The position numbers were made by a program, and so were the translations under genes. Shown here one piece after another: positions 13,183 through 53,356 of a stretch of 64,000 bases of DNA; positions within the stretch are counted from its first letter, which is position 1; each line of letters opens with the position of its first letter. Location of the stretch: NCBI GenBank assembly GCA_951406725.2, contig OX597833.1, positions 59,830,001 through 59,894,000 of the forward strand. The letters run 5' to 3'. The notes under the pieces are model-generated. The model made no database searches. It was not told the DNA's origin and was given only the letters and a program-made list of their open reading frames with translations. Source of the DNA: Octopus vulgaris (Eukaryota).

Positions 13183-13301
13183 TGTTTACAGCACCTAGGT
13201 TTCCCAAGCGGTCACCCATCTAAGTACTAACTCGGCTCAATGTTGCTTAACTTCGGTGATTGGACGAGAACCGATGTTTTCAAAGTGATATGGCCGTAAA
13301 T
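13183..13301 (-). rRNA. Solitary full-length 5S rRNA copy (gene variant or pseudogene)
   Basis: Minus strand ATTTACGGCCATATCAC...CCGAAGTTAAGCAAC...GTTAGTACTTAGATGGGTGACCGCTTGGGAA...GTGCTGTAAACA, 119 nt, colinear with animal 5S. Confidence 0.9.
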
Positions 13302-18584: not shown

Positions 18585-20100
18585 TGTTATAATAGAAATG
18601 AAAGAGTGAGGGGACACAACATTATAGCTGGTCAGACAGTGGATGTTATTCAACCCCGGTCACTGATTCAGTATTCCAGCATATATGTTGTAGGGGTGCT
18701 GGTGTTTACAATTACAGAACTAGGAACAAAATATCAGCAGAACACATTGCCTTTGCTACAGCTGTAGGCTAGTCCATCCTGTTCAGGCATTTGGATGCTT
18801 GGGCTGCCTGCTGGAGCCTAGCAGAAGGTATTTAAAGGGAAAAAATTTGACAAGGCAGTCAGTCGTCCGCTGTCGCTCGTTGACGCTACATCAAAGAGGC
18901 CAGGGAACAGAAGAAAGAAGACATGCACCCAACACCAGAGCTGAAGACACCTCTGAAAGAGGAGGCCCCGCCACGTCAAAACGGTAGAGGAGTAAGGGTC
19001 GAAACCAGACATGGTTCCTCCTGATGATGTCTTGAGCTAACTGGATCCTATAAAGGACCTGTTGTGGTAGCAGACCATGAAACACGGTTGAAATTCCTCC
19101 TACATTGTGTTGTATCCTTTTTTTTTCAAGGTTGTTGAGCAGGAGTTCTATGGATCCCTTTGATTACTATTTTATCCTATAGCCATTCAATGTTTAAAAA
19201 CTAGTTTTATAGAAACTTCATTCAAAATTCCTATTTGTTTTTCACATATTAACTTGTGAAGGTCGAACTATGTGAAACATTAAAGAAAGAAACCTAGAGG
19301 TTTCTTGCAGTACATACCAATACATGCATCTAAAGCAAAATTTTTTCAAAGACCTTCAAAATACTATTGTAGATCCTTAATTTAATATTTTGTTGTGAGG
19401 ACCCTCAAAAATCTTATATGGACCCCAATTAAGAACCACTGTTGTATAGTACAAGTGAAATTTGGTTGCTATTTCTTGTAGTTTGAGTATGGGGTGTTCT
19501 CTCATTTGTTGCAAGAGGTGTAGAAACCATGATACCAGTAATATTAAGAGGTGTGAATGGTGGGGAGAACTTGTGATGGTAACACAAGGTCAAGGGTCAC
19601 TATTTTTGAAGTCTCACTCTTGTGGTTTGACATTGTTGACAATACTGGATCCTTTTCCAGGGACAATATCTGGTCCTGTTTCCAGGGATCAGGCAGGTAT
19701 ACATGCACACACACACACACATATACATTTACACACACCTAGATACATACATGTCAGCATACACATTCACGCACACAAACCTACATACCTACATACAGCT
19801 ACACATGTACAAGTCAGAGACCAAGAGTTCTAAAGCCGAGTATCCCTTAGGGTATATGAGAAATTATGGGGTTGCATGAGATATCCAAAAGCCTTGGAAT
19901 TTAAAATAATCTCAACCAACCAAATTACAATGAGGGTAGCCCCATGCCTAATAAGTAATATTCATAGACATTCATGATGTATGTTGTTTGGTAGTCTTCT
20001 AAATATAGCTTTTCATCTGTTATCTGGCATCCATAAAATGTTACCCTTTATTTTTTGGCTGATGGTCTCCATTTATCTTACAATATAGTCCTCATAATAG

Positions 20101-50629: not shown

Positions 50630-51099
50630 CATTCTTTGACTTGTTCCACTCATTTGACTGTGGCCATGCTGGAGCACCGCCTTCAAGGGTTTTAGTCGAA
50701 GAAATCGCTCCCGGGGTTTATTCTTTTCTAAGTCTAGTAATTTATTCTGTTGGTCCCTTTTGCTGAACCACTAAGTTACAGGGACCATAAACACACCAGC
50801 ATTGGTTGTCAAGTGATGGCAGGGGGACAAACACAGGCACACATACATACACACACACATACATACGTACATACATACATATGTACGTAAGTACATGAGT
50901 GTGTGTGTGTGTATATATATATACATATATATATATATACACATACACGGTGTCTCCATCTACCATATCAACTCACAAGGTTTTGGTCAGCCCAAGGCTA
51001 TAGTAGAAGACACTTGCCCAAGGTGCCATGCAGTGGGACTGAGCCTGGAACCATGTGGTTGGGAAGTAAGCTTCTTACTACATAGCCACGCCTGTGCCT
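50630..51099 (-). mobile_element. SINE family A
   Basis: Reverse complement of family A. Confidence 0.82.
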
Positions 51100-51105
51100 A
51101 GGTAT

Positions 51106-51144
<39 letters not shown>

Positions 51145-51147
51145 AAC

Positions 51148-51452
51148 ATAAGCAACAAGAATGAATCCGGTAATTTAGTACAATTGTTTCATACTACAAC
51201 ATTTTATTAAAAGCTGTAAATATTACACCAGATTTAAGATGCTGAGTACTCTTCAGCTAATTTATATAGGTTTTCCAATAATATAAAGATGTGATTAATT
51301 GATCTGAGAACTTTATATTATTGGAAAACCTATATAAAATTAGCTGAAGTTTACTCAGCATCTTAAATCTGCTGTAATATTTACAGCTTTTAATAAAATG
51401 TTGTAGTATGAAACAATTGTACCAAATTACCGGATTCATTCTTGTTGCTTAT
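51148..51452. repeat. Long inverted repeat (141/142 bp arms, 22 bp spacer), Penelope-like repeat P6
   Basis: 51148-51288 is the reverse complement of 51311-51452 with about 5 differences. Confidence 0.95.
51175..51260 (-). ncRNA. Type I hammerhead ribozyme fold with canonical core
   Basis: UUAG-CUGAAGA-GUACUCAGCAU...AUGUUGUAGUAU-GAAACAAUUGUA-CUAA. Confidence 0.75.
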
Positions 51453-51558
51453 TTTTTATTATAATCACCCCGCATATTTTTATGGGTAACACCATAAAAA
51501 ATTCTGGTTCATTTAAATTAAGTGCCATATTCATTTGAATCTAAATTGTTGCTGAACT

Positions 51559-51589
<31 letters not shown>

Positions 51590-52091
51590 CTGTTGTCAAG
51601 TAGTAGTGGTTGACAAATTCAAGAATAATGACACAATGACACACATATATACCTGGCTTCCTTCAGTTTCTGCCTACCAAACCCAGTCAGAGATTTGGTT
51701 ACCCCGGGGTCACAGTAGGAAACCCTTGCCAAAGTGTCATGCAGTGGGCCTTCATCATCCTCATCATTGTGTGGTGCCCCAGCTTGGCCACTGCTTTCGG
51801 GCTAAAACATTTTAAAGGATTTTAAGGATTGTTGAACATCCATTTTTCCATGCTGGCATGGGTTCGACAGTTTGACAGGTGCTGGTGAGCTGTCCAGATT
51901 CCAGTTGTCTGTTGGGGGAATAGTTTCTATGGCTGGATGCCCTTCCTAACACCATCTACTTTATTGTGCCACTAGCATTAGTGAGATCACCATGCAGCTC
52001 ACAAGATTACCAAACTAAAGGCAGAGACAGCTTTGTGCTCCAAGATTAGAGGGTTAAAGTATAATTTGTAACCAACTATATATATATAATC

Positions 52092-52960: not shown

Positions 52961-53356
52961 TCTTTATATATAAAAGTGAAGTTGTGTGAGTGTCTGTCTC
53001 CTACGATTTAGATTCCTAACTACTCCCACATTTTGCGGTGCAGTTTAACCAAAACCGGGTATCTTATAGTCGTGATTCATATCGAGCCCTTCTGGGTATT
53101 AGCGCGCGTCTACAATGAGTCTACGATTTAAAAAATAATTTACCATCATTTTTTTCCATTTTAATGTATATTTTTTTTAATAAAGGGAAGTAACTCTTTA
53201 AAAATGTCTACGATGAGTCAACGATTTAAAAAAAAATTTACCATAATTTTTTTCCATTTTTAATGCATTTTTTGCTATTTTTGGGCTATAACTCTCTAAA
53301 AATGCTTTATAGTTATTTCCCTTACAAACCCGAGCAACGCCGGGCGATACTGCTAG
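52961..53356 (+). mobile_element. Non-autonomous Helitron-like element
   Basis: A|TC...cccgagcaacgccgggcgatactgCTAG|T. Confidence 0.8.

Follow-up and report, generated by a model that had tools for sequence, protein, structure and literature searches.

A head-to-head Penelope-like retrotransposon insertion with opposed hammerhead motifs in Octopus vulgaris

The insertion and its two hammerhead motifs

The window considered here is a 64,000-nucleotide stretch of the Octopus vulgaris genome (contig OX597833.1, positions 59,830,001 to 59,894,000 of the forward strand), and all positions below are counted from its first nucleotide unless another locus is named. It contains a foldback that an earlier note on this DNA had placed at 51148..51452 (305 bp), with near-perfect arms of 141 bp. 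Arm alignment and folding energy bear out the existence of this structure. By self-alignment, the inverted-repeat arms lie at 51144-51288 and 51311-51456 and are indeed near-perfect, although they are 145/146 nt long rather than 141 bp; they differ by five mismatches (51147/51453, 51177/51423, 51228/51372, 51249/51351 and 51250/51350) and one indel, an extra A in the right arm. Folded as RNA, the foldback reaches -205.3 kcal/mol, compared with -49.4 +/- 4.4 kcal/mol for 100 shuffles (z -35), so that a read-through transcript is predicted to form the long hairpin that the note had envisaged. The inverted part is therefore real, but the whole insertion is larger, occupying 51143-51559 (417 bp), with a right arm that runs 102 nt past the inverted portion.

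The left arm (51143..51288, minus strand) is an inverted, 5'-truncated pseudo-LTR (pLTR) that matches the family over 51288-51143 (family reference positions 816-960); it has the short, proximal type of end, a class found at reference 955-966, and no tail. The right arm (51286..51559, plus strand) matches the family over reference 789-1062 and is likewise a 5'-truncated pLTR, here followed by a tail and the long, distal type of end; 46 further matches to it include near full-length ones with 93-97% identity. What appears as a 22-nt 'loop' at 51289-51310 is family sequence as well, being the 5' extension of the right arm itself. The arms are joined through a 3-nt microhomology common to both at 51286..51288 (junction offset -3), and family sequence upstream of 51286 continues differently. 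The tail (51458..51559, plus strand) corresponds to the 5' UTR that separates the hammerhead from the beginning of the ORF in full-length elements, to judge by the layout of the elements L185 and L183/L184. The left target flank consists of (AT)n and then a few CA units (51110..51142), and the right one of (AT)n and then (AC)n (51560..51589); family arms end in (TA)n, and any target-site duplication would be unreadable in such a repeat. Contigs from four sequencing runs, compared with 51270-51550, leave 51270-51279 uncovered, and no listed piece lies over the junction; as contigs cannot show absence, this result says nothing for or against the palindrome. Almost certainly, the foldback is a single insertion of 417 bp in (TA)n, 5'-truncated and arranged head to head, that belongs to a Penelope-like retrotransposon (PLE) family.

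The earlier note had recognised hammerhead motifs on opposite strands of the two arms, and both motif layout and covariation agree with it. The left-arm motif (51175..51260, minus strand, read from 51260 to 51175) is of the minimal type I, with CUGAAGA, GAAA and a GUA site, C3 at 51256, G12 at 51190, a 59-nt stem II, a 4-bp stem I and the stem III palindrome ACAAUUGU; cleavage is predicted after 51179. It had been called intact, and its 14-nt core is complete, with G10.1-U11.1, but it carries a minor allele at 51228 that disrupts one base pair of the hairpin inside stem II. The second motif (51340..51425, plus strand) differs at the three places named in the note: A9 is replaced by U (51350), position 10.1 at the base of stem II is U (51351), and a U>C change at 1.2 leaves a mismatch in stem I (51423). 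Of the hammerhead core CUGANGA / GAAA / UH, which is intact in 126 of 152 family arms, the left arm is complete and the right arm lacks A9. The conserved G10.1-C11.1 pair is absent from the locus, where it is G-U in the left arm and U-U in the right; over 152 copies the combinations are U-U in 117, G-U in 20 and G-C in 13.

No hammerhead reached the Rfam gathering score in the 64-kb window, nor did any appear up to E=10 in 51000-51600, and support for the motifs was therefore taken from covariation; Rfam matches to miRNA families were set aside as generic hairpin matches far below cut-off. In 15 aligned sequences of the family and its relatives, 92.8% of cells are paired and 10 of 23 pairs have two-sided change, the controls giving 0/500 for shuffles and 22-56% for slid structures, a test that leans towards a hammerhead since the structure was drawn from the same related sequences. 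Helices I-III are backed by compensatory changes in this alignment. The palindrome of stem III varies among copies yet stays self-complementary, as expected for a dimeric ribozyme. Dimeric PLE hammerheads are reportedly the subject of a paper by Lunse et al. in 2017. No second same-strand hammerhead copy was found within the 64-kb window, and because the motifs thus have no such partner, and would pair with the antisense arm if transcribed, neither hammerhead at the locus is predicted to be active. With the arms head to head, a transcript of either strand would contain the antisense arm before it reaches the ribozyme arm. The hammerheads are best understood as passengers from the pLTR, which would act as a dimer in a long element RNA.

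The minimal type I hammerheads of metazoan PLEs, in the available text of PMC4209133, are similar in their short helix I, the palindromic 15.2-16.2 plus loop 3 and their location in the pLTR; the motifs here differ in a 59-nt stem II that contains an inner hairpin and in a 10.1-11.1 pair that is mostly U-U, compared with a conserved G-C. The same source describes, in Schistosoma, pairs of minimal hammerheads that lie on opposite strands at distances of 100-700 bp. Further motifs with a long stem II and a palindromic loop III were seen at L012:1010-1092(-), L017:557-640(+), L170:572-656(-), L196:2300-2379(+), L236:901-980(+), L005:1182-1269(-) and L104:3094-3179(-), and minimal hammerheads with long stem II recur over several repeat families of the genome. 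Elsewhere in the window, 18940-19095 (plus strand) holds one or two weak hammerhead look-alikes (CUGANGA ... GAAAC) whose stem I is imperfect and which may be the decayed motifs of a different family; 13183-13301 (minus strand) is a single 5S rRNA match of 98 bits, and 53108-53303 is a tandem pair of 98-nt copies, 79% alike.

The element family and its end classes

A 28-nt core pattern has 358 exact matches in the genome (0 for its control), giving a family of at least 358 copies, and a sister family whose pLTR is about 75% identical has 987 exact matches to a 25-nt pattern. The Penelope origin proposed earlier is borne out by the link of the family to an ORF of RT and GIY-YIG type. A C-terminal endonuclease (EN) frame was found upstream of family copies, and one ORF joins RT motifs with a C-terminal EN-type domain both in L185, where it is frameshifted, and in the sister elements L183 and L184, where frames of 976 and 984 codons are intact. 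L185 is laid out as truncated pLTR, tail, ATG, RT, Asn-rich linker, EN, 3' UTR and pLTR; over 450 aa its ORF shares 71% identity with the intact 976-codon frame of L183. Past its tail stretch, about 50 nt remain before the ATG that opens the RT-endonuclease ORF, and L183/L184 have the same layout. Direct pLTRs with hammerhead occur in L185 and, as repeats of 242-707+ nt with 98.9-99.9% identity, in L183, L184, L244 and L245, and the distance from pLTR to pLTR is 4.6-4.9 kb in the sister family and about 3.9 kb in L185. Pfam returned GIY-YIG only, as a weak match (E=0.023), and none for the L183 frame, while a PDB search with the element protein gave no match, so that the RT/EN assignment rests on the match of motifs to published Hydra features.

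Two observations on these elements may be recorded separately. The sister PLE frames lie at L183:2290-5217 and L184:2296-5247 and include an Asn-rich linker, and many copies of this family stand in near-perfect palindromes. Directly before the ATG, L185:900-945 and L183:2330-2375 contain, by eye, branch-point-like and acceptor-like sequence, which may point to an intron in the 5' UTR like that of Drosophila Penelope.

The Hydra clade is described in the accessible part of PMC8557442 by DKT, CxCX5C, CxxC/CxH, RWK and a (TA)n target, with a generally small size (<3 kb), as a description and not as a strict criterion. In the octopus elements, DKG is changed to DKT (L185 and L183 proteins), and a CxCX5C linker and C-terminal CxxC plus CxH are present (L185, L031), with no CxxC inside the GIY-YIG core (by eye); the CCHH motif is absent from the EN of L185 and L031. 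The N-terminal motif is RWK in the sister elements L183/L184 and RWI in the sole main-family copy reaching that region, and the target is again a (TA)n tract. Judged by these motifs the family appears Hydra-like, sharing DKT, CxCX5C, CxxC/CxH, the (TA)n target, the missing core CxxC and the hammerhead with that clade, and RWK as far as the sister elements are concerned, although the sister family exceeds its <3 kb at about 4.6-4.9 kb with 976-984-codon frames (PMC8557442). A Neptune assignment was dropped, the motifs having fitted Hydra. Compared by eye with Hydra-1_Obim, which in the PMC8557442 supplement has a 7-bp stem II with an 8-nt loop instead of the 59-nt stem II and a differing protein start, this would be a new Hydra-like family, absent from the published Hydra entries that were compared.

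Main-family arms were taken from the 30 loci nearest the left arm and the 30 nearest the right arm, with 87 drawn from the first 100 matches to the pattern on C1-C6, 3 more from similarity lists and 20 via a protein search; removal of duplicates and of arms ending before reference 930 gave 198 arms, 192 of them at at least 80% identity. Sister loci comprised the first 30 matches and 40 stretches from the first 100, mostly adjacent opposite-strand matches. One duplicate (L159, of L158) was dropped and L104 and L143 were omitted from some counts; the sample is not random, and the end class of the partner arm was never a selection criterion. L158/L159 (G000:C5:92.31-92.32 Mb) is the same foldback insertion present twice, about 5.9 kb apart, apparently through local duplication.

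The 3' ends of the 198 arms are bimodal, being either short (reference 955-966) or long (about 1045-1062). Fifty of the 52 divergent main-family pairs unite a short with a long arm, the exceptions being L003, which is short+short with a tail displaced 232 nt by an insert, and the complex L121; singletons are short in 44 cases, long in 43 and other in 3. In the sister family all pairs (39/39) are short+long, one of which (L013) is also among the main-family 52, and L183 and the full-length dimer L244/L245 are likewise short+long. Adjacent arms (n=61) are divergent in 53 cases, convergent in 3 and on the same strand in 5, and the head-to-head layout, with differing inner breakpoints, recurs at about 90 loci of the two families. 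A similar short motif comes before each of the two types of end, and where the element continues the next sequence is TT/ATAAT, with which a (TA)n primer could pair. At the other extremity, a hot spot of 5' ends at reference 814-819 was dropped as a transcription start, being partly an alignment artefact of a T-run indel. The dimer L244/L245 (G000:C2:37616775-37628316) is about 10.5 kb long and consists of two full-length sister elements head to head, 99.5-99.9% identical over 4.9 kb; one is short-ended and the other long-ended, and one keeps a 981-codon frame.

The inverted 5'-truncated pLTR layout with a one-sided tail is already published: the EN+ PLE insertions described in the available parts of PMC3846280 and PMC8557442 are alike in their head-to-head inverted 5'-truncated pLTR, a tail at one end leading into the ORF start, an AT-rich target and an Asn-rich ORF linker. 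The tail is 102 nt here and about 120 nt in the sister family, compared with 30-40 nt in those elements, and in the same sources it is optional or often one-sided, whereas the short+long pairing found here is near absolute.

Origin of the head-to-head layout

Scored at 554 common polymorphic sites in 41 pairs, the two arms of an insertion were discordant at 40; the expectation for random copies was 191. Discordance in the sister family was 51 against 221 expected, or 6 against 159 in a hand count without L218 and L231, in which pyrimidine-tract gaps dominate; sister arms differ at 97 of 13561 nt where 390 would be expected, and in 20 of the 39 pairs they are identical (counted by hand). Rare alleles were common to both arms in 9 instances and present in one arm in 108, and this mostly one-armed distribution argues against later homogenisation. 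Inner ends are no more than 10 nt apart in 11 of 29 sister pairs, compared with 0.97 by permutation (0/10000), a coupling that is weak in the main family (7/34 vs 3.7, P 0.06). The junctions mostly have 1-7 nt of microhomology or short inserts. Long-ended arms may run back through the 3' UTR and ORF (L012, L245), and the length of the 5' pLTR varies from 242 to over 707 nt, which together suggest that the template held more than one unit.

The pairing of short with long ends, the shared subfamily alleles and the coupled inner ends point to priming from both target ends at two sites on one template, and we think it reasonably probable that reverse transcription was primed by each of the two cut target strands, at different sites of the same element RNA, a mechanism read entirely from end products. 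The element protein would cut both strands of (TA)n. Of the two 3'-OH ends, one would prime shortly before the beginning of the ORF, at the distal site, to give the tail-bearing arm, and the second about 35 nt past the hammerhead, at the proximal site, to give the short arm; both cDNAs would stop early and then join at a microhomology. The template would be one RNA, or transcripts of one source. In LINE-1 twin priming, two primers at one target site generate a 5' inversion with microhomology at the junction. The cDNAs in that case copy adjacent parts of the RNA, whereas here the same segment is copied twice, yielding a palindrome. Closer to the present elements, a PLE protein studied in vitro, PAc (Poseidon, Anolis), is described in the available text of PMC11167929 as cutting and extending both strands of an AT-rich target, with reverse transcription starting at two positions inside the RNA that border the tail, all as proposed here; the hammerhead is dispensable for insertion, and the protein belongs to another clade.

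The most serious rival, which we regard as unlikely but deserving of real weight, is snap-back copying, in which the first cDNA, or an antisense RNA, folds on itself at a microhomology and is extended, perhaps annealing to the short cDNA of the other end; self-priming on an antisense template has been proposed for PLE inversions in the part of PMC3846280 available. It would yield arms that are nearly identical, and is in keeping with the coupled inner ends of the 11 sister pairs and with the perfectly palindromic centres of L195 and L217. The long arm extends further inward in 16/29 sister and 20/34 main-family pairs, about twice as often as the short arm, which suits snap-back copying and counts against priming from both ends, and the locus in the window also fits, with its long arm further inward, 3-nt microhomology and 22-nt loop. 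The short arm, however, is the one further inward in 8/29 sister and 10/34 main-family pairs, where each arm has sequence that the other lacks (the inner part in one, the tail in the other), so neither arm is a pure copy of the other. A hybrid of snap-back copying with both ends primed is possible.

We consider it distinctly improbable that both ends were primed on two RNAs or two pLTR copies, the differences between arms then reflecting two parents. Three of the five arm differences at the locus fall on common-allele sites, compared with 41 of 173 overall (a binomial probability of about 0.09, calculated by hand). In the left arm, G10.1 together with a run of three A marks a different subfamily, whereas all 25 of the copies nearest to the right arm have U10.1 and 21 of them the extra A, so that two parent copies keep some probability at this particular locus. 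Two further pairs, L162 and L173, are discordant at several sites, the sister pair L231 has several true substitution differences between its arms, and the modelled PLE protein is a dimer (PMC11167929). Set against this is the low overall discordance in both families, with or without the two gap-dominated sister pairs, and for two free RNAs the strict short+long pairing and coupled inner ends would call for a further assumption; a pair of transcripts from a single source locus would be indistinguishable from one RNA. The per-pair discordance, judged by eye, did not clearly favour derivation of one arm from the 5' pLTR and of the other from the 3' pLTR.

If both target ends are indeed primed on one RNA, inverted Penelope insertions in general might reflect obligatory twin priming, involving two target ends, two fixed sites and one RNA of more than unit length (multimeric, or a circle made by the hammerhead). 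We offer this broader proposal tentatively, at somewhat less than an even chance. Were it true, a short arm and a tailed arm would be copied from the same template in every inverted insertion, and the L244/L245 dimer would be the complete form of which the 417-bp insertion is a stub.

Ribozyme decay and significance

The earlier note had suggested that the plus-strand ribozyme was disabled because it is sense to a host transcript. A functional dsRNA hairpin in such a transcript, serving as an ADAR or Dicer substrate with its sense hammerhead disabled by selection, seems to us very improbable, even though the fold is very stable, PLE copies yield small RNAs in a rotifer (PMC3846280, in the part available), and both derived changes of the right arm, at A9 and in stem I, are at ribozyme positions. 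Comparison of the arms with the family upheld A9>U and the stem I U>C as derived in the right arm, but not U10.1, which had been taken as derived too: U is the family majority (118/152 copies, and 25/25 of the nearest copies of the right arm) and ancestral for the subfamily of that arm, which makes the G10.1 of the left arm the odd one and, for that site, is the outcome that the note had named as refuting its idea. A9 is kept in 147 of 152 arms, and its change to U is private, the pattern carrying it having one exact genome match. The C in stem I is derived relative to the 25 nearest copies, yet it is a family allele (19/184) that is elsewhere accompanied by a compensating G in 14 of 19 cases.

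Rates of damage across the family tell against selection in the same way. Rare alleles number 31/2372 at the 14 core positions and 309/19039 at other positions, a core lesion is present in 26 of 152 arms, and the 25 pairs spanning both ribozymes divide into 12 with both intact, 12 with one damaged and 1 with both damaged. Core lesions at about the background mutation rate, and one-sided in 12 of 25 pairs, indicate ordinary decay, and the proposed disablement is not supported. As raw counts, core lesions are somewhat more frequent in long arms (13/550) than in short arms (7/606), a difference that tells against the preferred account of priming from both ends. Common polymorphisms occur at 0/14 core positions vs 24/113 others (Fisher P 0.07), and the core looks constrained in source elements and free to decay after insertion. 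The arms at the locus have diverged at 6/145 positions (about 4%), equal to the family mean of 225/5595. As for a host gene, 150 frames scanned of 327 candidates gave 0 Pfam matches, in a scan by which short or unannotated exons would be missed. Single minimal hammerheads, finally, were uncleaved in vitro in the available text of PMC4209133, which would leave little to select against.

Least credible of all is an assembly artefact or a MITE/foldback DNA transposon: palindromes in simple repeats do assemble poorly and (TA)n hides a target duplication, but there are 6 positions that distinguish the arms, whose outer ends are unequal, the layout is repeated at about 90 loci of two families with variable inner breakpoints, the sequence is linked to an RT ORF, and the fixed symmetric TIRs of such transposons are absent. 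A non-LTR retrozyme, which according to bioRxiv 10.64898/2026.07.22.740005 consists of head-to-tail tandem units, each with a hammerhead, was also rejected, adjacent arms being divergent in 53 of 61 cases and on the same strand in 5.

The locus is thus probably a real but ordinary insertion, one among hundreds of decaying copies, and ordinary debris rather than an RNA switch. Taken singly it is of little weight; as a class, such insertions bear on how PLEs form tandem and inverted structures, the origin of which is named as an open question in the available text of PMC8557442. A literature search that left out most subscription papers, including the tail-defining reviews, found no published statement of a strict short+long rule or of PLE twin priming. 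Natural material well suited to the study of PLE inversion is available in the young sister family, which has intact ORFs and 987 core matches or more, and the pairing of short with long ends, the common source of both arms and the coupling of inner ends yield predictions that are testable in the existing in vitro PLE system.
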